64,000 nt of DNA, taken from positions 668-64,667 of the forward strand of contig JAJDWI010000013.1 in assembly GCA_022825665.1 (NCBI GenBank), read 5' to 3'. Below are positions 32,542 through 46,677 of the stretch, piece after piece; within the stretch, counting starts at the first letter, position 1, and every line of letters starts with the position of its first letter. A program made the translations under genes and the position numbers. Under the pieces are notes generated by a model. It saw only the letters and a list, made by a program, of their open reading frames with translations, was not told the origin of the DNA and did not search any database. The DNA is from Candidatus Poribacteria bacterium (GTDB lineage Bacteria; Poribacteria; WGA-4E; WGA-3G).

Positions 32542-34734
32542 ATGGAGAAAGACGATGTTCAGTTGATTCATGCTGTCTTGTCTGGAGATGATGAAGCATT
32601 TGGCACATTAGTTAAAAAATACCAAAAGAGTGTTCATGCACTTGCATGGCGGAAGATTGCGGATTTTCATTATGCTGAGGAAATTACGCAAGACACCTTC
32701 ATTCAAGCATATAAGAAACTCTCAACACTAAAGGATTGTAACCAATTTGCTGGGTGGCTTTATGTCATTACAAACAATCTGTGCACTGATTGGCTCCGAA
32801 AGAAAAAACCCGCGATACAACCGATGGGGGATTCCTCAGTGAAAGAAATAGAGAAGCAAACCTATGAGCGTTATTTATTGGAAAAGCGTGAAAAAGAAGT
32901 ATCTGAACATCGTCACGAAATCGTCCAGCTATTGCTTGAAGAATTACCAGAAAGCGAACGTACTGTGGTAACTCTCTACTATCTCGGTGAAATGACAACG
33001 AAGGAAATAGGTAAGTTCATGGGGGTATCAGTTAACACAATCACAAGTCGACTCCAACGTGCACGAGAACGATTAAAAGCGTCAGGTGAACAACTTATTA
33101 ACGAAACACTGGGTGGTTGGCAGTTGCCAAATAACATATACGAGAACATCATGAAACAGATATCAGACATAAATCCGATACCATCTCCAACCGGTAAACC
33201 GTTCTTACCATGGGTTGCTTATAGTGCAGCTGCGGTTATAGTAATATTGTTGATCAGTGTAAGCAACCAGTTTCTTGCCAGATTTCAGGAACCATATAGT
33301 TTGGAAGCACAATCTGAACCGACTATTGAGATTGTTGATTCGCTTGTAGTTCTGGAAACTGACGCAAAACCATCGATGCGAAATCAAATCGGACAGGATG
33401 TTACAACAGGAAAAACCAGCAGCACGGGTTCGGATTTAAGCGAGAAGATCTCAGCACCAAATACCTCAGAAAATACTCTCAAGCTTCCTTTTGCTTATTC
33501 TGACCCTAAAGTGTCACGTTTTACTTTAAGCAATGGTATACGAGTGGTCAATCTGCATGTTGAAAACGCCAAGGATGTCGGTATTTTCAGTTATTTGCCG
33601 CTTGGATTCGTTGGTGATGCAAAAGCAAAGACACAATGGAGCAACCTAATAATGCACCTATCAATTCGATCAACAGGTCCGATTGACTATAGAACAAGTA
33701 ACGCAGAAACAATGACTGACAACATGCGTTTTGATTTCATCGGCAATACGGATACATGGACACACGGGTTGAAATTACACGCAAAATGGCTTTCTGGTTT
33801 ACCCTTTACAGCGGAAAGTCTCGCCGAGGCACGACTAAACGCTTTGGCACAAATTGAATTTGTTGAAAAGAATTTGGCGACCCATAAGTACGCAGATGCT
33901 GCGTGGCACCAAGTGGTTCAACATGGAATAAACGATATAGCGATACGAGGGAATATTCAATCTGCGCAATTGAGTGATCTACAGGAATATCGTGATCAGA
34001 ATTTGGTCCAAAAGGATGGCGTGCTTTTATGTGTAATTGGAGGAGTTGATCCCGACACACTAAAAGAGAGCATGGAAGAAGGTTTAGGTGCAATTAGTTT
34101 AACAGAGAAGAAGTTGCCCCATAAAATAGGATCAACAGAGATAACAAGAGATCAAAATGCTACTTGGGATTTAAAAGTTACCCATTACATGGAGGCATAC
34201 CCAATGCCTTCTCCTGAAGACAAAGATTATCCCTCTCTATATATTACGAGTCTACTTTTACAGGGTTCTTTATTGCAAGATGCTAAATTGAAGGAAATGG
34301 TTGGGAACATTTTCTGTAGTGTTGACCTCGGCACACCTGAACAAGGATACTTATATGTAAGTGCATCTTTAAAACCTGATACAGATATAATGGAGGTAAA
34401 AGAGCGAATAGGGCAATTGATTAAAAAGTTAAAAGAATCCTATAATCAATTACAAATATATATGATTGCAAAGTCTATATCCAAAGAACTCAGCGCACCA
34501 CCGGATTTGAACACTCTCATGCAAAATAAGCCTGAAAATGTTTCAGAGACTTATGCACTTCTTCAGGTCGGTGTATCATGGGGAATGATGGAATACAAAT
34601 ATGGGGAGTACCTTGCACAACTCGCGAGTGCATTTGCAGACGTTACTGCAGCGGATGTTTCCAGTGTGGTCAACAGATATATAACTGTAGATCAGCGAAA
34701 GACTTTAGTTCTTTCGCCGCGAGCATCAAAATAA
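32542..34734 (+). CDS. ECF sigma-70 factor fused via one TM helix to a degenerate M16-like (pseudo-peptidase) ectodomain
   Basis: 730 aa. The N-terminus has sigma region 2 (..HYAEEITQDTFIQAY..WLYVITNNLCTDWLRKKK) and region 4 HTH (ERTVVTLYYLGEMTTKEIGKFMGVSVNTITSRLQRARERLK). The TM helix is PWVAYSAAAVIVILLISV (about aa 223-240). Residues from about 320 to 730 are paralogous to 29880..31184, but HLIEH is replaced by NLIMH (33643..33657). A GGAGG RBS lies upstream. Confidence 0.8.
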   Translation: MEKDDVQLIHAVLSGDDEAFGTLVKKYQKSVHALAWRKIADFHYAEEITQDTFIQAYKKLSTLKDCNQFAGWLYVITNNLCTDWLRKKKPAIQPMGDSSVKEIEKQTYERYLLEKREKEVSEHRHEIVQLLLEELPESERTVVTLYYLGEMTTKEIGKFMGVSVNTITSRLQRARERLKASGEQLINETLGGWQLPNNIYENIMKQISDINPIPSPTGKPFLPWVAYSAAAVIVILLISVSNQFLARFQEPYSLEAQSEPTIEIVDSLVVLETDAKPSMRNQIGQDVTTGKTSSTGSDLSEKISAPNTSENTLKLPFAYSDPKVSRFTLSNGIRVVNLHVENAKDVGIFSYLPLGFVGDAKAKTQWSNLIMHLSIRSTGPIDYRTSNAETMTDNMRFDFIGNTDTWTHGLKLHAKWLSGLPFTAESLAEARLNALAQIEFVEKNLATHKYADAAWHQVVQHGINDIAIRGNIQSAQLSDLQEYRDQNLVQKDGVLLCVIGGVDPDTLKESMEEGLGAISLTEKKLPHKIGSTEITRDQNATWDLKVTHYMEAYPMPSPEDKDYPSLYITSLLLQGSLLQDAKLKEMVGNIFCSVDLGTPEQGYLYVSASLKPDTDIMEVKERIGQLIKKLKESYNQLQIYMIAKSISKELSAPPDLNTLMQNKPENVSETYALLQVGVSWGMMEYKYGEYLAQLASAFADVTAADVSSVVNRYITVDQRKTLVLSPRASK

Positions 34735-36080: not shown

Positions 36081-37262
36081 ATGAATATAAAACAATATAT
36101 CTCGACTATTGTTATCCTATTGGCAGTTCTTAGTTTATCCATATTAGGATGTGAACGAATTGATCCTGTAATACCACCTGACACAACCATTCCTACACTG
36201 AAAATAGGTATTATTCAGCCAGCATATAGTTATACGACATTCAGTCAAGGTGCTGAAACTGCTCGTGTCCAAATTAATGATAATGGAGGAGTACTCAGAA
36301 TGCCGGTAGAGTTTATCAGTAGAAATAATCAACTTATGGCAGATGCCCCTTCAACGCCGGAGACAAGCATTGATGCGGCGAATGAGTTGATTGAAATGGA
36401 AAATGTCTTTGCCCTACTCGGTCCTGTTCGTTCTACTATGGCTCTTGAGGTAGGTCCAATTGCACAACAGGCACAACGACTGATGCTTCCCGGTTCCAGT
36501 GGTTCAAATGTAACAGAGTCGGGGGATTACATCTTTCTAATCACAGTACCGAATCCATTCCAAGGGAAAGTTATGGCAGCATTTGCGATGAATTCTGACG
36601 AACTCAGTGCTACCACAGCTGCTACCATCTATGAAGAGGGTGATGCATACTCGACTGATCTCGTCCATGCCTTTGAAGCAGCCTTTACGGAACTCAATGG
36701 AGAAATCTTACACAGTGGGTCTTATGCACCAGGGGAGGCTGACTTCACCACACTGATAACAGAGATTCAAAGCACTTCTCCAGATGTCATCTTCTGTCCA
36801 GGTCATCAACCGGAAGTGCCGATGTTGATTGGAAAAGCACGACAAGCAGGAATCAAAACCACATTCCTTGGTGGTAGTGCGTGGGATGATAGGGAACGAT
36901 TCCTCGGTGTCTTAGAGGATAGCACAGTATTGGATGGTAGTTATTATCCAACTAATTTTTCTGTTGCAACACAGGACGCAGATGTACAAGAGTTTGTTCA
37001 AGGTTATATGAAGTTGTATGGTGGTCCGCCCGATGGTATTGCAGCATCAGGTTATGATGCGATACGGCTCTTAGCGCGTGCGATAGAAACTGCTGGTGCG
37101 CTTGATCCTGTTGCTGTTCGTAATGCATTTGCAGAAGTCAAAGATTATAAAGGTGCTACATCAATTTCGCATTATGACGCAAATCGACATCCTGTCAAAA
37201 GTCTTACTATTCAGACAATCCGAAATGGAAAGGTTGAACATTACAAAGTTGTTGAACCGTAG
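36081..37262 (+). CDS. ABC transporter substrate-binding lipoprotein (LivJ/Peripla_BP_6-like)
   Basis: The start is trimmed to the ATG at 36081, which follows GAAAGGA. The lipobox is LSILGC. It has a type I periplasmic binding fold pattern (IGIIQP..., LLGPVRS, PDVIFCPGH). Confidence 0.8.
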   Translation: MNIKQYISTIVILLAVLSLSILGCERIDPVIPPDTTIPTLKIGIIQPAYSYTTFSQGAETARVQINDNGGVLRMPVEFISRNNQLMADAPSTPETSIDAANELIEMENVFALLGPVRSTMALEVGPIAQQAQRLMLPGSSGSNVTESGDYIFLITVPNPFQGKVMAAFAMNSDELSATTAATIYEEGDAYSTDLVHAFEAAFTELNGEILHSGSYAPGEADFTTLITEIQSTSPDVIFCPGHQPEVPMLIGKARQAGIKTTFLGGSAWDDRERFLGVLEDSTVLDGSYYPTNFSVATQDADVQEFVQGYMKLYGGPPDGIAASGYDAIRLLARAIETAGALDPVAVRNAFAEVKDYKGATSISHYDANRHPVKSLTIQTIRNGKVEHYKVVEP

Positions 37263-37302
37263 CACAGATTCTATAGGATGTATTTGTAGGAAGGAGTATC
37301 AA

Positions 37303-38343
37303 ATGGCAAAGGAATTGATTCAACTTGGTGTCGTGGGGTGTGGATGGGCAGGTTGCCGTGCTATCGAATCTGCGAATGCAACCTCCCGGCTGAAGGTTAT
37401 AGCAATTGCTGAGCGAGACGCATCCCGTCGGGAACAAGCAAGTAACGACAATGCAGTTCCACACCGTTATATCGACTATCGCGAACTCTTGGACAATGCT
37501 GATATTGATGCAGTCTATCTTGCAACATCTCCAGACGGTAGACTACAGCAAGTCTTAGATACGCTTAATGCGGGAAAACATGTATTAGTGCAAAAACCGC
37601 ATGCAATCCGTGCACATGAGATATTAGAGATGGAGATTGCAGCAAAGAAATCTGAGAAAACACTCCAATTCTGTTATTTTATGCGTCACTTCCCTCACAA
37701 CCGTCAAATTCGACGCGCTATCCAAAATGGTGCAATTGGCGACCCTTTTCACGCTCGCGTGTTCGGTAAATACAACTTCATTCCAACCCTTGACGATAAC
37801 AGTCGTTGGCTACATGTATATGGTCAAAAAGGAGGTTCCTTAGGTCAACACTATTCCCACGAACTGAACCTTACTTGGTGGTGGATGGGATGTCCGAAGC
37901 CTGAGTGGGCTTATGCCTCGAAACATGTGCTTTATCCGCAATATGAAGGACCGGAAGGTGCAGCAGAAGACTATTTCACAGGGCTTCTCGGATGTGAAGG
38001 TGGAAAAACTATACAGATTGACTGCTCACGGATGAGTCACTCCGACTCTGGTAGTGTTGTGGAACTTTACGGCACAACAGGAGCAATTACAAACGGTGGA
38101 ATATCTCGTTTCAAGGATGGCGAATTTATCCGAGAAACTATTGAAGAACCATCTGAAATTGACCATGGGGAACTCCCTGAGGATGTACCGGTATTCTTCT
38201 ACGAACTCAACCATTTCGCCATGGCAATCGCTGGAGAAGTCGACCCAGATGTTGACGTTTCCAACGCTTATACCTTCATGCAGATTTTAGATGCTCTCTA
38301 CGATAGTGCGAAACGTGGAGAGAAAGTCGACATCTCCTTGTAG
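37303..38343 (+). CDS. Gfo/Idh/MocA-family oxidoreductase
   Basis: The ATG at 37303 follows AAGGAG. The Rossmann motif is LGVVGCGWAG, with VQKP in place of the EKP motif. The track ORF start 37096 overlaps the upstream gene. Confidence 0.85.
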   Translation: MAKELIQLGVVGCGWAGCRAIESANATSRLKVIAIAERDASRREQASNDNAVPHRYIDYRELLDNADIDAVYLATSPDGRLQQVLDTLNAGKHVLVQKPHAIRAHEILEMEIAAKKSEKTLQFCYFMRHFPHNRQIRRAIQNGAIGDPFHARVFGKYNFIPTLDDNSRWLHVYGQKGGSLGQHYSHELNLTWWWMGCPKPEWAYASKHVLYPQYEGPEGAAEDYFTGLLGCEGGKTIQIDCSRMSHSDSGSVVELYGTTGAITNGGISRFKDGEFIRETIEEPSEIDHGELPEDVPVFFYELNHFAMAIAGEVDPDVDVSNAYTFMQILDALYDSAKRGEKVDISL

Positions 38344-38398: not shown

Positions 38399-39265
38399 TC
38401 ATTGAGGAGATGAATTAGGCAAAGATGTAATTGGAAAAATGCCGTTCTGCAGAAGATCGTCATGGATTATCCTATAGCATTTATCCAAAAATTTGATTGT
38501 TTGGTTATAAACATTCTGGCAAAAAGTAATCATTTCAGTCTCGGCAGGATCTGTGTTGGTGTGAAAGAAAGAATTTCGGAAATACAATTTGGTGACTGCC
38601 GGAGAACCTGTTAAGGCAATTGAAGATGAGGAAATCATCACGCCATCTATATCATCATGTACCAACTGATGTCTAATTTCCCTCGCGATATTGAATGTGG
38701 AACCCTTTTTATCAGGTTTCCCGTTCTGATCTATCGCGTGAAAGACGCGTAAATGGCGAATCAAATTTCCATTCGGAAATTTGTTGTCCAATGCTTTACG
38801 AATATAAGATGGTCGATCATCCGAAGGTTTTAAATCGTAAACGATGTTAATGATTTTCGCAATACAGTCCTCTAAACTAACGAGATTTGAAAAGAAACCG
38901 CCCAAAACAATGAAAACAACCAACGCGGAGTTTTCAGGCAACATGTCAGAGTTGTTGTTCAACAAGTTGATTTCAACATGGAAATCGTTGTCTGTAAAGT
39001 TGACAAAAGACTTTGATACAAATGACCATTCTAATTCTGCTGGAGAAACAACTTGGAGTCCCAAATAAAAATCGGATTCCATGTTTTGAATTGCGTTAAA
39101 GTAAAACTTTGCCGCGTTGATTCGTTGTCTGGTTATTCGAACAAGTTCTATAATGCTTAATTCAGCCTCTTGAGCAGCTACCTCTACCAAGTCCTGCGTT
39201 TTCCGGTTTGTAGCAAGTTCATCAATTTTCTGAAGGAGACTGGCTTCATACGTTAAGTTTACCAT
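38399..39265 (-). CDS. HEPN-like protein (candidate RNase effector or partner of the STAND protein)
   Basis: 288 aa, largely helical. The candidate HEPN motif R198-x4-H203 sits in FNIAREIRHQLVHDD (38657..38674). Its start overlaps the upstream stop (gaATGgTAAac), which indicates translational coupling. Confidence 0.45.
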   Translation of the reverse strand: MVNLTYEASLLQKIDELATNRKTQDLVEVAAQEAELSIIELVRITRQRINAAKFYFNAIQNMESDFYLGLQVVSPAELEWSFVSKSFVNFTDNDFHVEINLLNNNSDMLPENSALVVFIVLGGFFSNLVSLEDCIAKIINIVYDLKPSDDRPSYIRKALDNKFPNGNLIRHLRVFHAIDQNGKPDKKGSTFNIAREIRHQLVHDDIDGVMISSSSIALTGSPAVTKLYFRNSFFHTNTDPAETEMITFCQNVYNQTIKFLDKCYRIIHDDLLQNGIFPITSLPNSSPQ

Positions 39266-42200
39266 TCTTCCCCTTCAAGAAATTCTTCATCTTCCTGGGC
39301 AAGCCATTCAATTTCCTGTTGTGTCATGTCTATCAGACTTGCAGCAAACTCTACAACAATCTGTGAATTGGTTCTATTTTGCCATGTTTTGAGGTCCTCA
39401 ATGCGTCTCACAAGATGTGATGCTGGTTTCCCGACGGTTCTCGCTGAAACCCCTGAAGAAAGTGCAACGGTGATTCCACCTTGTGCTTTTTTGTCCCCAT
39501 TGCTTTTAATGAGAACCGACTCTGCAAGAAAATAAAAGACTGCATCTGTCTCAAAACCTCTCATTAGATAGGCAGCCCCTCTCATCATTTCTAAATTTCC
39601 TGAGTTAATCCATTCCTCAAGGAGTTTCTGCATTGGCGCGTTAATTTTAATCCCATCACTGTGAGGATCATCTCCACTAATCATAGATACAAGTAATATA
39701 GGTGCTTCAAATCTAAGGAGGTTTGAGGACGTAAGAACCCAGTCTCTGACTCGTCTCAAAGCCTCCATAGCGTTCTTATCACTCCAATCAACATCCTTAA
39801 ACAAATAGTGTGGACGATGTGGTACAGCGTCAAACTTCAACAATTCTAATGGACGGTCCGAAAATGAATCGTAACGGTTAGATTCATCCTCTTTGTAAGT
39901 AATTCGTTCCTCAAAAAACTCAATAACCCATATAGGATCGTGCTTGAAAATTGCCTGAAGGGCTTTTTCAGAGTCATAATCAAGGCGTTCTAAACGAACA
40001 CAATTAAGCATCACTTGCTTGTATTTTTCCAAGTGATTTTTTGAAGAGAATTTAAGATCTTTACTTGTGATCGCGTGGATGACTTGTCTCATAACCACCG
40101 GTGATTCATCACTTGATAGTCTTACTAAAATCTTAAGAACAGTGTCTGCATCCACAACATAGAAATTCGGGAGACTTTCGGTTATATACAGTCGCAATTG
40201 CGGGTCTGACGTTTTAGACAATAGGTCTAAAATTGACAGGTCTTCTTTTCCAAAGGATGGGTCAGTTTTACTTTTCCACAAGTAACTTCTTGCAACAATA
40301 CGTTTGGCAAAGATGATGTTCTGATCTAAAAGTCGTTGAGTTGCTTCGCTTGCTTTATCTTTGTCAGAACAGCGAATACCATTGAGTAATCCAGAGGCAC
40401 AATGCGATTCCTCTGTTTGCCAAGCAATAATGTAATCTAATAGACAAACCCCATACGAATGGTCAAGTTTACCGATAGATTGAAGCAGTAATGTTGCAGT
40501 TCCAGGATTCCACCCCTTTTCTGCCCAAATACTGTCTCCAGTACTACGGTACTCCTTCCCTGTTTCAACAACCATTATACATTCTTGCATTAATTTCGAG
40601 AGTTCCGCGGGTTTGTATTTCTTGAGGTATTTTTTCAAGAACGCCTGGGTTTGCTCAAGACTTTCACTCAGATCCCAATCACGGAATTTCCCAGTGAATT
40701 GACGGTAGAATAGGTATCTTTCATAATTTTCACGTTTGTGGAATTTCTCAAGTAATTCCGTTGCCTTCTCTTTTGGAAAATCGTCTAAATACATATTTTC
40801 TGTATATCCTTGGAGACACTGATCTATTGCATTTAGAACGGTGAAATCGGTTTCTCTTGAGATTTGCTCAGCTAATATGTTGAAGAGTCGTTCCTGTTCT
40901 TTTTGTAATTGAACCTGATCCTCTTCTGCGATTCCCTGCCGAAATGGACTCTCTAAAGGATTTATCGCTCGACTAATAGATCCTATCGCCTTTGTTCTGA
41001 TGATACTATGTTGAGACTTTCTCAAACAAAACTCAATTAGGTCAATCGCCTTCGTTCTGAGTTCGATCAATTCAGGTGTATATTTCAAATGGTGCCAACC
41101 AAACTTCAAAGAACCGCCTTCGCTAAAGGTTTCACTAAAATCCAGCACAAGAAGAGTGTCAAGTGCATTGAGTAGTGCCAAACTTAGTTCAGGCTTATCC
41201 TCTGTTTTCCACACCTCAAACCCTTCAAGCACCTTGGTTTGAAATACGCTGGGTTTACTTGTATGGAAACCTGTCATCCTTTTCAACAATTCTTGCGGCG
41301 AGTCGTTATTAGGAAGTTCCAAACCTTCCATCAGCAGAAGTTTCCGAACTATTTCAAGTGTCTTTATGAATCCAGAGAGTGTATTGACTGTCTTCTGTGC
41401 TTCTTTAGCAACCTGCTGTACTACATCTTGGTGGGTCCGTGTAGATGTCCACCCTGCATATTGCTTTACATAGTCTTCTTTAGGATTATCTAAGATAATA
41501 TTGAAAATATCAGTTGCATCATCTGGACGAAAATAACTAATACCTTCCATTTGTTCCAAAATATGCTCTCTAACGGCATTATCGCCTTCCCGTACTTGGA
41601 TTTTAGTAGAAGCGACATGATCATCAAGGAGACTCCTTTGACCAACTATGTTTTCTACACGAGCCAGATTGACAATTACCTTGACAGGGTGAATTGGCAA
41701 AAATTCCTTCAAGAGAGTTTTGTGATAAAAAGACGGTCTCTTGTCATTGGACAAAAAGCATGCTTTCCGTAAAATATAGTCGCTGAGTGCATCAGGATAG
41801 ACACGTTGTTTTCGCCCAATTTGGACAAGCAAACCGTATTTTATTAGATCATCGCGATACTGCTCTATCTCATAGGGCTCCACTTTTAAGATTTCAGCCA
41901 ATTTTTCGCATATTTGGCTGTTTTCAGCTTCAATCGGCTCAATCCCACTAAACCAATCCAGCAATTTACGGTGCTGCTTTTCGGATTCTGGTAGATATTT
42001 GCTGAAAATGTCATTTAGATAAGCATCAAAGGTGAGTTCAATCCGTTTATCATGTGTAATTAAGTTGCTCAGATGAATGCCTTCCTTAAAGAGATGTATC
42101 ACCATAACGGCGATCAGCGGAGTATCTCGTCCAATCTGTGCTAACTCTGCCAATAAAGATCCGTCGGAAATATCTGTATATGTGCTGATAAATTCCTTCG

Positions 42201-43188
42201 TTTTTTCCAGAGAAATTTTTCTAATTTCAAGTTCATCAGTTGCATCATCAGGTAATGTAGTAAGAAAACAACTATCCAAAAACGCTTTGAATGGCTTCCG
42301 TGTTATAAGGACTGCTTTGGATTCACTGTATTCGGAACTATTTAGAAGTATTCTAATACCTCCAAGGTTATCAAGCCTGTCATGTGCGTTATCTACAAAA
42401 AAGATGTAGTTACGATGGGGAGGAATATCTGCAAGGGCATTTTCAAAACTGTCATCAGCCATCTGAACAAAGAGTGGCACATAATCAGTGTAGTCACGTT
42501 CAACTGTCTTTGCAAAATCAATAGCAAGTTTGGTTTTTCCAATCCCTCCACTACCGTACATTGTGAGTAGTCTTTTTTCTGGGTTTTGAACAAAGGCTTG
42601 AAATCGACTAATCTCATCCTCACGTCCGAAAGTTTCATAGTCATATCGTAAAAGGTGATGTTTATCTGCAATTTGATTTCGGAACATATCCTGCCAACAA
42701 AGGAATACAGGTAGATGAGGATCTCGGAATGAATTTAATAGGTATGGAAACTCGTCGGTCATTGAAATAAGATCTTCAGCATCCCAACAGGTTAACGTAA
42801 AGGTATACCCTCTCTCATTTTTAATGTCCTCAATTTTACGCTTGTTTCCTGCAGTAAGCAAAGTGTTAGTCATGAGAACGTAGTGGTCGCATTGCTGGGC
42901 ATCCGCTTTGTCAAGTTCCCCCTTTTGACGTTTTCCGCCCTTCATCTTTGAAATGAGTTGACTGCGGACACGCCCTTTATCCATGGTTGGATCAAAGAAT
43001 TTGTACTGGAATATCCAAGTGCCGTCCTTTTCCTTATAATATCCGTTATAGTCCGCGTCAATTCCACCATCGCGTCCTTGTGCATCGTAAACCTTTACAA
43101 AGGGGGACACCTCTTTCTTCAGAAACAAGTTGCAAAATCTGTCAAAACTTTCTTCTGATTGTATATAGTCTGATAATACTTTTTTCAT
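39259..43188 (-). CDS. Mrr-like (PD-(D/E)xK) nuclease + STAND P-loop NTPase + long helical-repeat C-terminal region (Avs-like architecture)
   Basis: 1309 aa. The N-terminal GRDGGIDADY..(16 aa)..WIFQYKFF matches the Mrr_cat D..D..QxK pattern. Walker A is YGSGGIGKTKLA (aa 211-222) and Walker B is YIFFVDNAHD (aa 261-270). About 900 C-terminal residues are helical-repeat-like. Confidence 0.7.
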   Translation of the reverse strand: MKKVLSDYIQSEESFDRFCNLFLKKEVSPFVKVYDAQGRDGGIDADYNGYYKEKDGTWIFQYKFFDPTMDKGRVRSQLISKMKGGKRQKGELDKADAQQCDHYVLMTNTLLTAGNKRKIEDIKNERGYTFTLTCWDAEDLISMTDEFPYLLNSFRDPHLPVFLCWQDMFRNQIADKHHLLRYDYETFGREDEISRFQAFVQNPEKRLLTMYGSGGIGKTKLAIDFAKTVERDYTDYVPLFVQMADDSFENALADIPPHRNYIFFVDNAHDRLDNLGGIRILLNSSEYSESKAVLITRKPFKAFLDSCFLTTLPDDATDELEIRKISLEKTKEFISTYTDISDGSLLAELAQIGRDTPLIAVMVIHLFKEGIHLSNLITHDKRIELTFDAYLNDIFSKYLPESEKQHRKLLDWFSGIEPIEAENSQICEKLAEILKVEPYEIEQYRDDLIKYGLLVQIGRKQRVYPDALSDYILRKACFLSNDKRPSFYHKTLLKEFLPIHPVKVIVNLARVENIVGQRSLLDDHVASTKIQVREGDNAVREHILEQMEGISYFRPDDATDIFNIILDNPKEDYVKQYAGWTSTRTHQDVVQQVAKEAQKTVNTLSGFIKTLEIVRKLLLMEGLELPNNDSPQELLKRMTGFHTSKPSVFQTKVLEGFEVWKTEDKPELSLALLNALDTLLVLDFSETFSEGGSLKFGWHHLKYTPELIELRTKAIDLIEFCLRKSQHSIIRTKAIGSISRAINPLESPFRQGIAEEDQVQLQKEQERLFNILAEQISRETDFTVLNAIDQCLQGYTENMYLDDFPKEKATELLEKFHKRENYERYLFYRQFTGKFRDWDLSESLEQTQAFLKKYLKKYKPAELSKLMQECIMVVETGKEYRSTGDSIWAEKGWNPGTATLLLQSIGKLDHSYGVCLLDYIIAWQTEESHCASGLLNGIRCSDKDKASEATQRLLDQNIIFAKRIVARSYLWKSKTDPSFGKEDLSILDLLSKTSDPQLRLYITESLPNFYVVDADTVLKILVRLSSDESPVVMRQVIHAITSKDLKFSSKNHLEKYKQVMLNCVRLERLDYDSEKALQAIFKHDPIWVIEFFEERITYKEDESNRYDSFSDRPLELLKFDAVPHRPHYLFKDVDWSDKNAMEALRRVRDWVLTSSNLLRFEAPILLVSMISGDDPHSDGIKINAPMQKLLEEWINSGNLEMMRGAAYLMRGFETDAVFYFLAESVLIKSNGDKKAQGGITVALSSGVSARTVGKPASHLVRRIEDLKTWQNRTNSQIVVEFAASLIDMTQQEIEWLAQEDEEFLEGEEW

Positions 43189-43356
43189 CGCATCTTACCT
43201 TCAATACCAGTGGATATTATACGGAGGAACATTTCTACTTTTGCGCAAATGGCATGTAGTGACTACAGAATTTCATATCACATATTAGCATATTTCAGGA
43301 CTGAAGTCAAATTGTATTAACTCATTCTCTAATCAAGTTTCAACATTTAAATATAT

Positions 43357-43422: not shown

Positions 43423-44460
43423 ATGTATAAAAGTGCGATATTAGGGTGTGGTGGACGCGCCCGCGGGCATGCAAATGCCTATCGCTATGTTAAAGGTGGT
43501 AAACTCGCGGCAATATGTGATATGAATGAAGAACGTCTCAATGATTTCGGTGATAGATTTGAAATCTCTTCACGTTATACAGATTTGGATGAGATGCTTG
43601 AAAAAGAGAAACCTGATTTACTTCATATTGTGACTGCCCCAACTTTACGCGGCTCCAATCAGCGCATTAGGTATTCACTGATGAAGCAAGCATCTGATTG
43701 TGGGGTTCCTGCAGCAATTGTAGAGAAACCAATTGCTGTGGATAGCGATGACTGGAAACAAATCGCTGGGTTAGCAGCAGAAACAAAGACCAAGTTTGTT
43801 GTCAACACACAACTCAACTTCCATCCAAAAAACATTGAATTGAAGCGAGATGTAGCTGACGGTAAAATCGGTGAGATAAAGTTTATTGATGCAAGTGCAA
43901 GAAGCACCTCAGCCAATCAGGGACCTCATGTGCTTCAATTAGTTTCGTCGTATATAGACAATTCTCGACCCGTACGGGTGTTAGGTCAAATAGCAGGGAA
44001 TAAGAATTTGGACTCTGCAGAACCTTCACCGATGGACGCTGCTGCACAGGTTATATATGAAAATGGACTTCATGCTTCAGTGGCATTTGGTGAGGGTATG
44101 GGAGCTAAAGCATCTAATGCCCCAGCCAGATTTCGTCATAAACGCGTATTTGTCGTTGGGACAGAAGGTTTCGTACATTGGCGTTTTAGTAGTTGGGAAC
44201 GTTCTACACGAACTGGTGGCTACGAAGGTGGAGGACTCAACTATGGTGATCAGGATGTTCAAGCACAAGGCAATCTAACTGAAGCAGTTTATGATTGGCT
44301 TGATAATGAGAAAAATATCCATCCGACACATTTAAAGCAATCCCTTGCTGAATTTAATCTGATATTAGGTATTTATCAAAGTGGTATTACGAACCAGATA
44401 ATTGATCTTCCATTTGACCCTCCAGATGGATTAATTGATTCCCTAAAAGAAAATCTATAG
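43423..44460 (+). CDS. Gfo/Idh/MocA-like oxidoreductase, tandem paralogue 1 of 3
   Basis: 345 aa. The N-terminus is AILGCGGRARGHANAY, with an EKP motif (IVEKPIAV). A GGAG RBS lies upstream. Confidence 0.85.
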   Translation: MYKSAILGCGGRARGHANAYRYVKGGKLAAICDMNEERLNDFGDRFEISSRYTDLDEMLEKEKPDLLHIVTAPTLRGSNQRIRYSLMKQASDCGVPAAIVEKPIAVDSDDWKQIAGLAAETKTKFVVNTQLNFHPKNIELKRDVADGKIGEIKFIDASARSTSANQGPHVLQLVSSYIDNSRPVRVLGQIAGNKNLDSAEPSPMDAAAQVIYENGLHASVAFGEGMGAKASNAPARFRHKRVFVVGTEGFVHWRFSSWERSTRTGGYEGGGLNYGDQDVQAQGNLTEAVYDWLDNEKNIHPTHLKQSLAEFNLILGIYQSGITNQIIDLPFDPPDGLIDSLKENL

Positions 44461-44471
44461 GAGATAATTAC

Positions 44472-45509
44472 ATGTTTAAAAGTGCGATATTAGGATGTGG
44501 TGGACGCGCAGGCGGACACGCAAGTGCCTATCGCTTCGTAAAAAGTGGAAAACTCGCTGCAATCTGTGATATGAGCGAGGAACGTCTCAACAATTTCGGT
44601 GATAGATTTGAAATCTCTTCACGTTACACAGATTTGGATGAGATGCTTGAAAAAGAGAAACCTGATCTACTACACATTGTTACCGCACCAGTCTTACGCG
44701 GTTCCAATGAGCGTATTCGGTATTCATTGATGAAACAAGCATCTGACCACGGTGTGCCTGCGGCAATTGTAGAGAAACCGATTACTGTTGAAAGCTCAGA
44801 ATGGAAACAGATCGCTGGTTTAGCAGAAGAAACTAAAACAAAGTTTATTGTCAATACACAACTCAACTTCCATCCAAAAAATCTTGAACTTAAGCGTGAC
44901 GTTGCTGATGGTAAGATTGGTGAGATTAAGTTTATTGATGCAAGTGCAAGAAGCACACCTGTAGACCAAGGACCACATGTGCTCCAATTAGTTTCATCCT
45001 ATATAGATAATTCTCGTCCGGTAAGGGTGTTAGGTCAAATTTCTGGAAGAGATCATTTGGAATCTGCCCAACCATCACCAATGCATGCTGCTGCACATGT
45101 GATGTACGAAAATGGGCTTCACGTATCTGTTGCATTTGGTCAGGGGGTCGGTACAATGGCATCTGATGATCAGGGAATATATTGCCACAAACGTGTATTT
45201 GTCGTTGGAACGGAGGGATTTGTACATTGGCGTTTTAGTAGTTGGGAACGCGCTACACGAGCTGGTGGCTACGAAGGTGGACCACTTAACTATGGTGAGC
45301 AGGATGTTGAAGCACAAGGAAACCTAACAGAAGCAGCCTTTGCATGGCTTGATGATGAAAACAAACAACATCCGACACATCTTAAGCAATCCCTTGCTGA
45401 GTTTAATCTGCTATTAGGAATCTATCAAAGCGGTATTACGAACCAGATAATTGATCTTCCATTTGATCCACCGGACGGTTTAATGGATTCACTCAGAGCA
45501 AAGTTGTAA
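44472..45509 (+). CDS. Gfo/Idh/MocA-like oxidoreductase, tandem paralogue 2 of 3
   Basis: 345 aa, collinear with and highly similar to 43423..44460. The intergenic gap is 11 nt and contains GGAG. Confidence 0.85.
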   Translation: MFKSAILGCGGRAGGHASAYRFVKSGKLAAICDMSEERLNNFGDRFEISSRYTDLDEMLEKEKPDLLHIVTAPVLRGSNERIRYSLMKQASDHGVPAAIVEKPITVESSEWKQIAGLAEETKTKFIVNTQLNFHPKNLELKRDVADGKIGEIKFIDASARSTPVDQGPHVLQLVSSYIDNSRPVRVLGQISGRDHLESAQPSPMHAAAHVMYENGLHVSVAFGQGVGTMASDDQGIYCHKRVFVVGTEGFVHWRFSSWERATRAGGYEGGPLNYGEQDVEAQGNLTEAAFAWLDDENKQHPTHLKQSLAEFNLLLGIYQSGITNQIIDLPFDPPDGLMDSLRAKL

Positions 45510-45540
45510 TTAAAAGATGATATTTCCACAAGATTGTCTT

Positions 45541-45571
45541 AGCGGTAGCAGCGGTTTTCGCCACTACCGCT
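45541..45571 (+). repeat. Hairpin (agcggtag..ctaccgct) between paralogues 2 and 3
   Basis: An 8-bp perfect stem containing GGTAG. It could be a REP-like element or a weak terminator. Confidence 0.35.
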
Positions 45572-45639
45572 AATTATTATCCTCCGTGAATATACACATG
45601 AGTGTTTCGCGGATTAACAAAGTTTAAGGAGGAATAACC

Positions 45640-46677
45640 ATGTATAAGAGTGCATTTTTAGGTTGTGGGGGTCGTGCGCGGGCACATGCAAGCGCATATA
45701 GATTTGTTAAAGGCGGTAAAATTGGTGCAATCTGTGATATGAACGAAGATTTACTCAATAAGTTTGGCGATGACTTTGATGTATCTTCGCGTTACACAGA
45801 TTTAGATGAAATGCTTGAAAAAGAGAAACCCGATCTTCTCCACATTGTCACTGCGCCAGTATTGCGTGGGACAAATACTCGTATCCGTTATCCATTGATG
45901 AAGCAAGCATCTGACCACGGTGTGCCAGCGGCGATTGTTGAAAAACCGATTGCTGTTGAAAGTGAAGACTGGAAGGAGATTGCTGGATTGGCGGAAGAAA
46001 CAAATACGAAGTTTATTGTCAATACACAACTCAACTTCCATCCAAAAAACCTTGAACTTAAGCAAGATGTAGCAGACGGTAAAATTGGTGAGATCAAATT
46101 CATTGATGCAAGTGCACGTAGCACACCAGTTGATCAAGCACCTCATGTATTGCAGCTGGTATCGTCTTATATTGATAACTCCCGTCCTACCCGTGTGTTA
46201 GGTCAAATATCTGGTAAGGAACAATTAGATTCAGCCCAACCATCTCCAATGCACGCTGCTGCTCAAGCAATATATGATAACGGATTACATGTTTCACTCG
46301 CTTTTGGAACAGGTATGGGAACTTTAGCATCAGAGTCTGGAGGAACAGTAACACATAAACGCGTTTTTGTTGTAGGTACAAAAGGCTTCGTACACTGGCG
46401 GTTTAGTAGTTGGGAACGTTCCACACATGAAAGTGGTTATGAGGGCGGTCCACTAAACTATGGTGAACAGGATATCCAAGCACAAGGCAACCTTACTGAA
46501 GCAGCCTTTGATTGGCTTGATGATGAAAACAATGTTCATCCAACACACCTAAAGCAATCTCTTGCAGAGTTTAATCTACTTTTAGGAATATACTATAGTG
46601 GTATAACCAATCAGATCATTGACCTGCCTTTTGATCCACCTGATGGATTGATGGATTCTCTCAGAGAGAAATTGTAA
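45640..46677 (+). CDS. Gfo/Idh/MocA-like oxidoreductase, tandem paralogue 3 of 3
   Basis: 345 aa, collinear with the two upstream copies. An AAGGAGG RBS lies upstream. Confidence 0.85.
   Translation: MYKSAFLGCGGRARAHASAYRFVKGGKIGAICDMNEDLLNKFGDDFDVSSRYTDLDEMLEKEKPDLLHIVTAPVLRGTNTRIRYPLMKQASDHGVPAAIVEKPIAVESEDWKEIAGLAEETNTKFIVNTQLNFHPKNLELKQDVADGKIGEIKFIDASARSTPVDQAPHVLQLVSSYIDNSRPTRVLGQISGKEQLDSAQPSPMHAAAQAIYDNGLHVSLAFGTGMGTLASESGGTVTHKRVFVVGTKGFVHWRFSSWERSTHESGYEGGPLNYGEQDIQAQGNLTEAAFDWLDDENNVHPTHLKQSLAEFNLLLGIYYSGITNQIIDLPFDPPDGLMDSLREKL

Follow-up and report, generated by a model that had tools for sequence, protein, structure and literature searches.

Two overlapping genes in the genome of a Poribacteria sponge symbiont raise the question of whether they form a single functional module and, if so, of what kind. 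One encodes a very large protein with a nuclease-like N-terminus and a P-loop NTPase, and the other a small HEPN-like protein. The window, that is, the whole stretch of 64,000 nucleotides that was analysed, contains both open reading frames at the positions listed in table 1. A preliminary description of this DNA had proposed an Avs-like defence sensor, translationally coupled to a HEPN-like second gene. We consider the pair to be a two-gene NLR-like conflict module of the STAND class, most likely anti-phage, with a separate HEPN effector (probability about 0.6), in which a DNase and an RNase would presumably act together in defence.

Table 1. Features of the two-gene module, in window coordinates
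Feature	Position	Strand	Basis
Candidate promoter TTGACT-17 nt-TAATAT with upstream TG	43282..43310	-	Consensus scan; about 95 nt before the large gene
Large gene, 1309 aa	39259..43188	-	ORF; predicted restriction-endonuclease-fold nuclease, STAND NTPase and long C-terminal region
N-terminal restriction-endonuclease-fold domain, aa 1-160	42709..43188	-	Residue conservation and PADLOC Aga_REase-TIR match
Proposed catalytic residues D40, D44, Q61, K63	43000-43071	-	Conservation across related domains
STAND NTPase module, aa 185-520	41629..42636	-	Motifs, nSTAND_NTPase5 matches, PDB profile search, Foldseek
Walker A GSGGIGKT (aa 212)	42532-42555	-	Motif
Walker B IFFVDNAHD (aa 262)	42379-42405	-	Motif
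Sensor-1-like TRKP (R297)	42292-42303	-	Motif; R297 invariant
GxP-like DTPL (P357)	42115-42126	-	Motif; P357 nearly invariant
Winged-helix region with RVYPDALSDYIL	41770-41805	-	P465 and D466 nearly invariant
C-terminal region, aa 521-1309, presumed ligand sensor	39262..41628	-	Homology extends over the full region in the family
HEAT_2-like stretch, aa 986-1041	40066-40233	-	Sub-threshold match, E = 6.5e-4
Motif FFEERITY (R1095), invariant	39895-39918	-	Conservation in 36 members
Start/stop overlap ATGGTAA, 7 nt	39259..39265	-	Joins the two genes, probably for translational coupling
Small gene, 288 aa	38399..39265	-	ORF; Cthe_2314-like HEPN protein, predicted RNase
FFSNLVSLED (N127, D133)	38867-38896	-	D133 invariant across four lineages
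Rx4H motif RHQLVH (R198, H203)	38657-38674	-	Invariant in 42 homologues

The overlap between the start of the small gene and the stop of the large one, noted earlier, was read directly at the junction, gaagaATGGTAAac, where a purine-rich GAAGGGGAAG stretch stands just ahead of it. An overlap is kept in all 20 other Poribacteria species, in a 7-nt, 4-nt (ATGA) or 1-nt (TAGTG) form. Comparison of 20 Poribacteria upstream regions showed several positions of the candidate promoter block to be conserved at a level of 85% or more; for the whole region, the consensus scan for promoters and terminators did no better than chance. The genes flanking the pair do have metabolic functions (GFO/IDH/MocA oxidoreductases, a periplasmic binding protein and a luciferase-like monooxygenase), but the "isolated islet" that they were thought to enclose is not one, because the same chromosomal site is occupied in every Poribacteria genome examined. 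The pair was present in 20 of the 20 Poribacteria species genomes found, its genes always overlapping and always at one chromosomal site between sugar-oxidoreductase genes, and an inserted mobile islet is ruled out by synteny across these 20 species. No known defence genes were seen beside the pair at the Poribacteria loci examined. The Poribacteria locus is lineage-fixed and syntenic, neither an isolated islet nor a defence island. A WD40-trypsin gene has joined the locus in five Poribacteria species.

About 200 close homologues of the large protein were found (1300-1310 aa, 72-80% identity), and its wider family comprised 575 cluster representatives at E<=1e-10, most of which aligned end to end at 22-30% identity. 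The two nuclease-type motifs start at aa 38 (GRDGGIDADY) and aa 58 (WIFQYKFF), and in 120 close homologues D40, D44, Q61 and K63, together with the Walker A lysine K218, D266 and R297, were invariant or nearly so. The N-terminus had been read as PD-(D/E)xK and Mrr_cat-like. Its restriction-endonuclease-type motif stands, since D44, Q61 and K63 do not vary, and D40 hardly does, among 26 N-terminal domains at 25-35% identity; the canonical Mrr_cat label does not, the Pfam profile (PF04471) having matched only 4 of the 26 related domains (best E=4e-4) and not the N-terminal domain of the window. The PADLOC models Aga_REase-TIR and PDC-M58A were better matches for this domain family, and the former aligned with aa 11-140 of the window protein at E=3.6e-3 and with relatives at values down to 3.8e-12. 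Judged from these profiles and conserved residues, the domain appears to belong to a divergent restriction-endonuclease-fold clade rather than to canonical Mrr_cat. In a model of aa 1-520 the predicted order is helix 12-22, strands 31-34, 43-51 and 54-63, helix 71-83 and strand 102-107, with pLDDT <50 at aa 1-43; D44 and Q61/K63 fall on adjacent predicted strands of this low-confidence model, and the order fits a PD-(D/E)xK core. Among relatives the N-terminal module is swapped for caspase, EAD10, TIR-like or LmuA-like modules, and the restriction-endonuclease type was found in only 38 of 113 full-length distant representatives. Such swapping of N-terminal modules is typical of defence STANDs.

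The STAND P-loop module marked by GSGGIGKT and IFFVDNAHD was substantiated at the level of the family. Both the Walker A and the Walker B motif of a P-loop NTPase are in place in the large protein, and across 36 family members at about 22% identity G215, G217, K218 and R297 were invariant and D266, P357, P465 and D466 nearly so. We take TRKP, DTPL and P465-D466 to be sensor-1, GxP and winged-helix elements, by the motifs of NB-ARC proteins. Considering that 34 of the 36 aligned members matched nSTAND_NTPase5 (Pfam PF25199, "Novel STAND NTPase 5"; best E=4.8e-10), the NTPase seems to fall in the Pfam nSTAND5 group, and variable N-terminal effector modules are typical of such STANDs; the window protein and the Poribacteria clade, however, fall short of this model alone. 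NB-ARC and NACHT were each matched by 6 of 36 aligned end-to-end homologues (E down to 1e-88), and the homologue P0246 reached 30.8 bits on a curated STAND profile with a cut-off of 34. The large protein of the window gave only sub-threshold matches to AAA_16, NPHP3_N, ATPase_2 and nSTAND6, and in single-sequence scans of Pfam, NCBIfam and PADLOC neither window protein passed any curated threshold; the precomputed labels of the Poribacteria clade of the large protein were AAA_16, ATPase_2 and HEAT_2.

Searched against the PDB, the NTPase profile of the family found 2fna, PH0952, NB-ARC, Avs4 and plant NLRs, with similarity beyond the P-loop, and the alignments to 2fna, Roq1 and Sr35 ran on through the helical and winged-helix part. 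When the full Poribacteria alignment served as the profile for PDB sequences, the only similarity was to the P-loop of an NB-ARC protein. The model of aa 1-520 had a pLDDT of 54 because the alignment was shallow, and it was used just for the order of secondary structure and as supportive evidence. Its top Foldseek match was EcAvs4 (PDB 8dgf, E=5e-9, 599 columns), which we count as no more than supportive since the N-terminal model is of low confidence, and the secondary-structure order of the NTPase part of this model (pLDDT 54) fits STAND elements. The proposed succession of nuclease, STAND NTPase and C-terminal region is borne out, and, on evidence from the family, so is the close coupling of the two genes. 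As for the C-terminal region, of the "about 900 residues of helical repeats" announced earlier, a long region of about 790 residues was recovered, and repeats are hinted at by the one sub-threshold HEAT_2 match and by the precomputed HEAT_2 label of many homologues of the large protein. Within it the 36 members all have R1095, and nearly all of them R711, and there is an acidic tail, EEFLEGEEW.

The HEPN-like nature ascribed to the second gene gained support from its invariant residues and from one of its counterparts. R198-x4-H203 is invariant in 42 homologues of the small protein, and among partners drawn from four lineages, at 13-17% identity to the window protein, only D133, R198 and H203 are invariant and N199 nearly so; the RNxxxH-type site of the partners reads RHxxxH in the window protein. 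The profile HEPN_Cthe2314 (PF18730) was matched by 19 of the 42 homologues (best E=2.6e-4). Against its cut-off of 27.1 bits the window protein scored 14.3, and the positional counterpart at locus L005 passed with 28.8. This L005 counterpart aligned with the Poribacteria profile over 217 columns with weak statistics (E=2.3e-3, probability 12%) and resembled the partner at locus L034 by BLASTP (E = 1e-6). The AF2 model of the small protein (pLDDT 81, pTM 0.82) consists largely of helices, plus a single short hairpin. Foldseek searches of it against the PDB and viral structures (BFVD) returned no HEPN structure (best E about 0.1), only generic long-helix bundles, and the small-protein profile had no match among PDB sequences.

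The pairing recurs in distant bacteria. Co-occurrence of the two genes among homologues, which the preliminary description had wished to see checked, extends from the 20 of 20 Poribacteria species to three further lineages, Spirulina among them, in which a coupled RNxxxH partner lies downstream of REase-STAND relatives; the Spirulina pair overlaps as ATGA. In the small number of contexts sampled outside Poribacteria, the partner was found in 4/4 sampled REase-nSTAND5 lineages and was not found after five other relatives with readable downstream DNA. The same check for defence-gene neighbours failed at the Poribacteria loci and succeeded for remoter relatives without a partner, which adjoin Gabija-like genes, type I Cas genes and AbiEii. 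With tblastn, the large protein had no match in phages and the L005 partner none in plasmids; the large protein found three weak relatives in plasmids, all without a partner. A metagenome scan for loci returned 3, and an alignment-based word search 10 proteins. Literature searches for a STAND and HEPN two-gene system yielded no match (the supplements of the 2026 STAND census lay outside the search), nor did they yield a description of nSTAND5 or of a partner gene for it, so that no published description of the pairing was found.

The evolution of the pair is of the conflict type. The Mantel correlation between the two proteins was 0.16, versus 0.82-0.90 between flanking genes, and segments inside the large gene were also phylogenetically discordant. 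The small gene falls into at least 9 deep allele groups. Values of dN/dS were 0.17 and 0.24 for the pair versus 0.05-0.11 for the flanks, and both genes are under purifying selection. In Poribacteria, the module keeps to a single site while recombination reshuffles its parts between lineages; defence genes do not usually combine fixed synteny with purifying selection. Two independent IS insertions and one nonsense mutation have disrupted the small gene in 3 of 20 species, and the module may therefore be able to function in its absence; the large gene is intact in 21 of 21 genomes. A role of the small gene as antitoxin is rejected, because the three species in which it is disrupted keep an intact large gene.

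Among known systems, Avs4 resembles the module in its domain order: a Mrr-like nuclease carrying a D...QxK-type site comes first, a STAND NTPase follows, and a large sensor forms the C-terminus. The large protein displays the fusion of an N-terminal Mrr-like nuclease to a STAND NTPase by which Avs4 is recognized. Avs4 was also among the top sequence-profile matches of the NTPase region (E = 2.2e-6), although archaeal ATPase_2 and plant NLRs match this region at least as well. The window protein had no match with the PADLOC Avs4 model (PDLC02169) at E<=1, and of the 36 aligned family members only 2 matched it, weakly (E=0.0049); we therefore regard the large protein as Avs-like in design and not as a member of Avs4. 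Moreover, no similarity to the sensor of Avs4, which recognizes the phage portal protein, was detected in the C-terminal region, and the locus here is fixed and syntenic instead of lying in a variable island. Avs4 is described as a single gene, while the large protein here has a conserved coupled partner. That such a second gene departs from a canonical single-gene Avs layout needs some qualification, since multi-gene Avs types were reportedly listed already in the original AVAST classification. Avs2-trypsin-MBL, described in a 2026 preprint (bioRxiv 10.64898/2026.08.25.746987) as a system in which ligand-driven STAND oligomerisation turns on a coupled protease and nuclease, likewise shows that a STAND system can have several effector activities. 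Its effectors are trypsin and a metallo-beta-lactamase-fold nuclease rather than a REase-fold domain and a HEPN protein, and its STAND clade and sensor differ from those of the module here.

Kaur et al. 2021 (PMC8195603) predicted a two-gene nSTAND2 conflict system with GT4 or HEPN effectors, the HEPN RNase being a usual one. In that system each of the two genes encodes a STAND protein and HEPN is fused to an inactive STAND, whereas the HEPN protein here stands alone (about 280 aa) beside a single STAND protein with intact NTP-binding motifs. With the Cthe_2314-like HEPN family (PF18730) the small protein has in common the Rx4-6H motif and, by its model, a largely helical make-up; the 2013 HEPN census (Anantharaman et al., PMC3710099) gave "None detected" for the architectures and operons of this family, in contrast to the relatives here, which are tied to a REase-STAND gene. 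In the study of Lee et al. 2026 (PMC13581612), Mrr was among the search seeds and a defence-type effector domain suffices to call a STAND clade defence-associated, and STAND clades without an immune role lie scattered among immune ones.

If the pair is a conflict module, the C-terminal region would bind a foreign protein or another danger signal, upon which the NTPase would switch state and the large protein oligomerise. The oligomer would bring the nuclease domains together, leading to cleavage of DNA, and the same assembly might recruit or pair the HEPN partner, leading to cleavage of RNA, so that the infected cell would be shut down. A bolder version, which we put forward tentatively and hold to be possible rather than probable, is that REase-nSTAND5 with a Cthe_2314-type HEPN constitutes a distinct, undescribed two-component immune system in which the STAND oligomer activates an RNase in trans, and that in Poribacteria it has become a permanent single-site locus whose sensor, nuclease and RNase alleles are kept diverse and reassorted by recombination, like the polymorphic NLR loci of plants and animals.

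The same data can be read in other ways. The HEPN protein could be a toxic RNase that the STAND protein restrains or, upon a signal, sets free, with only a minor or regulatory role for the nuclease-like N-terminus. HEPN proteins often serve as the toxin in two-gene modules such as HEPN/MNT; the start/stop overlap would set the ratio of the two proteins, and damage confined to the small gene by two independent IS insertions and a nonsense mutation, with the large gene intact throughout, is what a costly toxin would be expected to show. We nevertheless consider this unlikely, because the family-wide invariance of D44, Q61 and K63 argues for a probably active nuclease effector, known antitoxins are far smaller than a 1309-aa STAND protein, the presumed controller lies upstream of the toxin gene, and no addiction-type mobile context was seen in Poribacteria. 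A cellular role outside defence, for example as a STAND-type regulator or in nucleic-acid quality control, retained for its benefit to the cell or to life in the sponge, would agree with the fixed position in 20 of 20 species, the metabolic flanks, the purifying selection on both genes, the lack of known defence neighbours at the Poribacteria loci and the interspersed non-immune STAND clades (PMC13581612). But no DNA-binding output domain was found, and there are two nuclease-type active sites instead; caspase, TIR-like and EAD10 modules replace the nuclease in relatives; the phylogenies are mosaic and discordant, unlike those of the flanking housekeeping genes; three species do without an intact small gene; and the WD40-trypsin gene that joined the locus in five species is typical of conflict systems. 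This role, too, strikes us as improbable.

The small protein could also be a non-enzymatic helical adaptor or co-sensor that aids ligand binding or assembly, its Rx4H motif being a leftover or a coincidence. The low score of the window protein on HEPN_Cthe2314, the generic long-helix bundles returned by Foldseek, and the fast evolution and deep allele groups that a binding surface might show all fit such a role. However, three invariant residues and a nearly invariant N199 at 13-17% identity form the pattern of a catalytic site and not of a binding surface, and the L005 partner passes the curated cut-off of the HEPN family, so we hold an adaptor to be very unlikely.

Read as a conflict module with a separate HEPN effector, the pair would give the orphan Cthe_2314 HEPN family, for which the 2013 census had neither architectures nor operons, a partner and a testable role. 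It would also be a new arrangement among bacterial NLR-like receptors, in which the sensor carries the main effector as a fusion and another nuclease-type effector is encoded separately and coupled in translation. Fixed at one site in an uncultivated phylum of sponge symbionts and yet mosaic, the module offers a natural case in which the upkeep and diversification of immune genes without mobile islands could be followed. By their conservation, D44/K63, K218 and R198/H203 are the obvious targets for mutation.

The two overlapping ORFs that the preliminary description had singled out were found in the window, and its four quoted motifs lie in the large protein at aa 38, 58, 212 and 262. In profile searches of Pfam, NCBIfam and PADLOC, neither of the two proteins passed a curated threshold when searched singly. 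The large protein gave sub-threshold matches to AAA_16 (E = 3.5e-4), HEAT_2 (6.5e-4), NPHP3_N and ATPase_2 and, over aa 11-140, a weak PADLOC match to an Argonaute-associated REase; the small protein matched HEPN_Cthe2314 at E = 0.043. Therefore, the earlier domain calls were tested via relatives. About 200 close cluster representatives were found for each protein, and all of those with a source-named organism belonged to the candidate phylum Candidatus Poribacteria. Among these close relatives the large protein was very uniform (72-80% identity, 1300-1310 aa), and D40, D44, Q61, K63, the Walker A motif, D266 and R297 were nearly invariant in 120 homologues. For the wider family, an exhaustive search with aa 1-1200 returned 1183 cluster representatives at E <= 1e-3; tightening the limit to E <= 1e-10 left 575. 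Most of them were 1250-1310 aa long and aligned nearly end to end at 22-30% identity, which argues that nuclease, NTPase and C-terminal region form a single old, coherent architecture.

The large protein had been called an Avs-like sensor, with the remark that Avs4-type members carry Mrr-like nucleases. In design the module does resemble Avs4, but the family fails the Avs4 model: only 2 of 36 aligned members matched it (E = 0.0049), and no PADLOC model spans the family at full length. Mrr_cat was matched weakly by 4 of 26 N-terminal domain members, and PADLOC Aga_REase-TIR and PDC-M58A matched better. Since D44, Q61 and K63 are moreover invariant in N-terminal domains at 25-35% identity, the domain appears to represent a divergent restriction-endonuclease-fold clade of Mrr-like type. 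An REase-type N-terminus was present in only 38 of the 113 full-length distant representatives; in other relatives it was replaced by caspase, EAD10, TIR-like or LmuA-like modules. Swapping of the N-terminal module is typical of defence STANDs.

STAND-type matches were sub-threshold for the window protein singly; in the family, PF25199 (nSTAND5) was matched by 34 of the 36 aligned members, AAA_16 by 31, and NB-ARC and NACHT by 6 each. Judged from these profiles, the large protein belongs with the nSTAND5-type STANDs of Pfam. G215, G217, K218, R297 and R1095 were invariant in the 36 members, and R189, G212, D266, P357, P465, D466, N507 and R711 nearly so. Outside the NTPase module, R1095, in the motif FFEERITY, is the one residue that stays invariant at about 22% identity. 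Against the PDB, the profile of the NTPase region matched STAND structures beyond the P-loop, including the archaeal ATPase_2 protein 2fna (2.4e-7), the PH0952 sensor, an NB-ARC protein, Avs4 (8dgf, 2.2e-6), Roq1, NRC1 and Sr35. A low-confidence AF2 model of aa 1-520 (pLDDT 54) had EcAvs4 as its best Foldseek match (E = 5e-9, 599 columns). Cdc6/Orc1, plant NLRs, NLRP9, Apaf-1 and MalT ranked next; because the TM-scores were low, the match to EcAvs4 is taken as supportive only.

Scanning one genome per species, we found the large gene in 20 Poribacteria species, at one locus in each, and found no close relative of it outside the phylum. The small gene followed directly in all 20 species, and the neighbourhood was constant, with a GFO paralogue array upstream and a GFO gene, a binding protein and a luciferase-like gene downstream. 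Thus, the coupling recurs throughout, but the pair, described earlier as an isolated islet, occupies the same site in 20/20 species and is not an inserted one. Start and stop overlap in every species, as ATGGTAA, ATGGTAG or ATGGTGA (7 nt), ATGA (4 nt) or TAGTG (1 nt), and a candidate sigma-70-like block upstream of the pair is conserved in these species. In the window the junction reads gaagaATGGTAAac, and the ATG of the small gene sits 7 nt within the large gene, preceded by the purine-rich GAAGGGGAAG. Conservation is high in the acidic tail of the large protein, EEFLEGEEW; the codons of this tail contain both the RBS-like GAAGGGGAAG and the small-gene ATG, which makes the stretch dual-coding. 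W or WE(E) is also the C-terminal end of distant large-protein relatives.

Outside Poribacteria, a coupled gene for a 250-280-aa RNxxxH protein followed the REase-nSTAND5 gene in three further lineages, and all of these partnered large proteins had the REase-type N-terminus. No partner was found in five other relatives with readable downstream DNA, which either had no REase-type N-terminus or belonged to an nSTAND3-type branch. Three of these remote partner-less relatives adjoin defence-type genes: one a Gabija-like OLD-TOPRIM ATPase/UvrD helicase pair on a conjugative element that carries TraG and TraM genes, the second type I Cas genes and the third AbiEii. In the subfamily of the large-protein relative P0250, the next gene begins 3 nt past the HEPN-like partner and encodes a cysteine-rich protein with several CxxC pairs and no significant Pfam match, which points to a three-gene form of the module.

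The small protein was far more diverse among close relatives (50-82% identity) than the large one, and N127, D133, R198 and H203 were nearly invariant in 120 homologues. Its AF2 model was confident (pLDDT 81, pTM 0.82) and, apart from a single short hairpin, mainly helical; Foldseek with this model gave no significant match among PDB or viral structures. HEPN_Cthe2314 was matched by 19 of 42 homologues (best E = 2.6e-4), and HEPN_Apea or pEK499_p136 by a few. The positional counterpart after P0246, the closest distant relative of the large protein (locus L005), scored 28.8 bits on HEPN_Cthe2314 against a cut-off of 27.1. This counterpart aligned with the Poribacteria small-protein profile over 217 columns with weak statistics, and was directly related to the partner at L034, of a third lineage (BLASTP E = 1e-6). 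When the partners of the four lineages were aligned jointly, only D133, R198 and H203 were invariant, with N199, I197 and S130 nearly so; the common signature is S..D ... IRNxxxH, and the window protein has H at the N199 position. This family-level evidence points to HEPN and would place the partner in the Cthe_2314 HEPN family or beside it.

Purifying selection acts on both genes, though less tightly than on their neighbours (median dN/dS 0.17 for the large and 0.24 for the small gene, versus 0.05 and 0.11 for two flanking genes). In 18 genomes (the window and 17 other species), the distance matrices of the two proteins were essentially uncorrelated (Mantel r = 0.16, p = 0.05; Spearman 0.06), and among the flanking genes, which served as control, the agreement was strong (r = 0.90, p = 0.0007; and r = 0.82). 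Agreement between the large gene and the flanks was only weak (r about 0.4), the four segments of the large gene were mutually discordant (r from -0.08 to 0.41), and the small gene split into nine or more allele groups that differ by over 35%. The discordance persisted with contigs above 1 Mb only, where the controls lose power. Our interpretation is that recombination frequently reshuffles components of the module within a stable chromosomal backbone, with the caveat that metagenome bins may be chimeric. The small gene was broken in three species; the large gene was intact in 21/21 genomes.

Features of the pair, its relatives and its surroundings
Feature	Location	Strand	Remarks
Large gene	window 39259-43188	minus	1309-aa ORF
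Small gene	window 38399-39265	minus	288-aa ORF
FFEERITY	window 39895-39918	minus	aa 1091-1098 of large protein
EEFLEGEEW	window 39262-39288	minus	aa 1301-1309 of large protein
GFO/IDH/MocA array	window 43423-46677	plus	3 head-to-tail 345-aa paralogues, upstream of pair
ECF-sigma/M16 ORF	window 32542-34734	plus	730 aa; ECF sigma regions 2 and 4 (aa 7-180), peptidase M16 inactive domain (aa 477-633)
GFO/IDH/MocA ORF	window 37096-38343	plus	415 aa as mechanically listed; overlaps end of binding-protein gene
Partner locus	L005		metagenome; 4-nt gap to large gene
Partner locus	L006		Spirulina sp. CCY15215; ATGA overlap
Partner loci	L034, L035		P0250 subfamily
Cysteine-rich protein	L034:7739-8833		364 aa
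Defence-type genes	L008:1943-5829		beside remote partner-less relative
Defence-type genes	L030:1-2052		beside remote partner-less relative
Defence-type genes	L033:8293-9024		beside remote partner-less relative
Interrupted small gene	L024:9685-10805		IS3-type element (HTH_Tnp_1 + rve)
Interrupted small gene	L025:9101-10287		IS630-type element (HTH_32 + DDE_3)
Broken small gene	L019:8906-9757		in-frame stop
777-849-aa gene	L015:9767-12130		
777-849-aa gene	L017:9713-12262		
777-849-aa gene	L023, L026, L028		equivalent ORFs

The best-supported reading, to which we give a probability of about 60%, is that the pair constitutes an NLR-like conflict module of the STAND class whose two outputs are of nuclease type. 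Sensor, switch and DNase would lie on one chain, and the translationally coupled HEPN protein would be a second effector. By analogy with characterised Avs proteins, we infer that ligand binding would lead to NTP-dependent oligomerisation, activation of the nuclease through proximity, and recruitment or pairing of the HEPN protein. It is unlikely that the genes instead form a toxin-and-controller pair, and just as unlikely that they have a non-defence cellular role; that the small protein is a non-catalytic adaptor is more doubtful still. Each of these accounts less well for the conservation of catalytic-type residues, for effector swapping in relatives, for the mosaic evolution or for the fact that the small gene is dispensable. 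Of the earlier interpretation, the domains and the coupling hold; a defence function is a prediction.

STAND systems with more than one effector activity have precedents in Avs2-trypsin-MBL (bioRxiv 10.64898/2026.08.25.746987) and in an nSTAND2 pair with a fused HEPN domain (PMC8195603). A 2013 HEPN census gave "None detected" for both architectures and operons of the Cthe_2314 family (PMC3710099). The 2026 census of prokaryotic STANDs comprises 589 clades, 198 of them defence-associated, regards the presence of a defence-type effector domain as enough evidence, and had Mrr among its search seeds (PMC13581612); the clade of the large protein is probably already within it. Our literature search found no description of an REase-STAND gene coupled to a free-standing HEPN gene.

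The pair has a G+C content of about 0.39-0.40, its flanks one of 0.41-0.45. On one side of the pair stand three tandem paralogues of GFO/IDH/MocA oxidoreductases, and on the other a single one; the flanks also encode a periplasmic binding protein and a luciferase-like monooxygenase, with an ECF-sigma/peptidase-M16 protein and the GTPase RsgA more distal. The small gene is directly followed by a further gene of the same strand in five Poribacteria species; in the two scanned (L015, L017), its product has a WD40 beta-propeller and, C-terminally, a trypsin-like peptidase that matches PADLOC RT-Protease_XI. The window lacks this gene. Within 5 kb of flank, the GFO array of other Poribacteria species had from 1 to at least 4 copies. 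The sigma (569 aa) and M16_C (685 aa) proteins are encoded by separate adjoining genes at locus L002. Since the GFO/IDH/MocA match of the 415-aa ORF begins at aa 76 and its orthologues have about 345 aa, its real start is probably the Met near 37306 (MAKELIQLGVVGCG).
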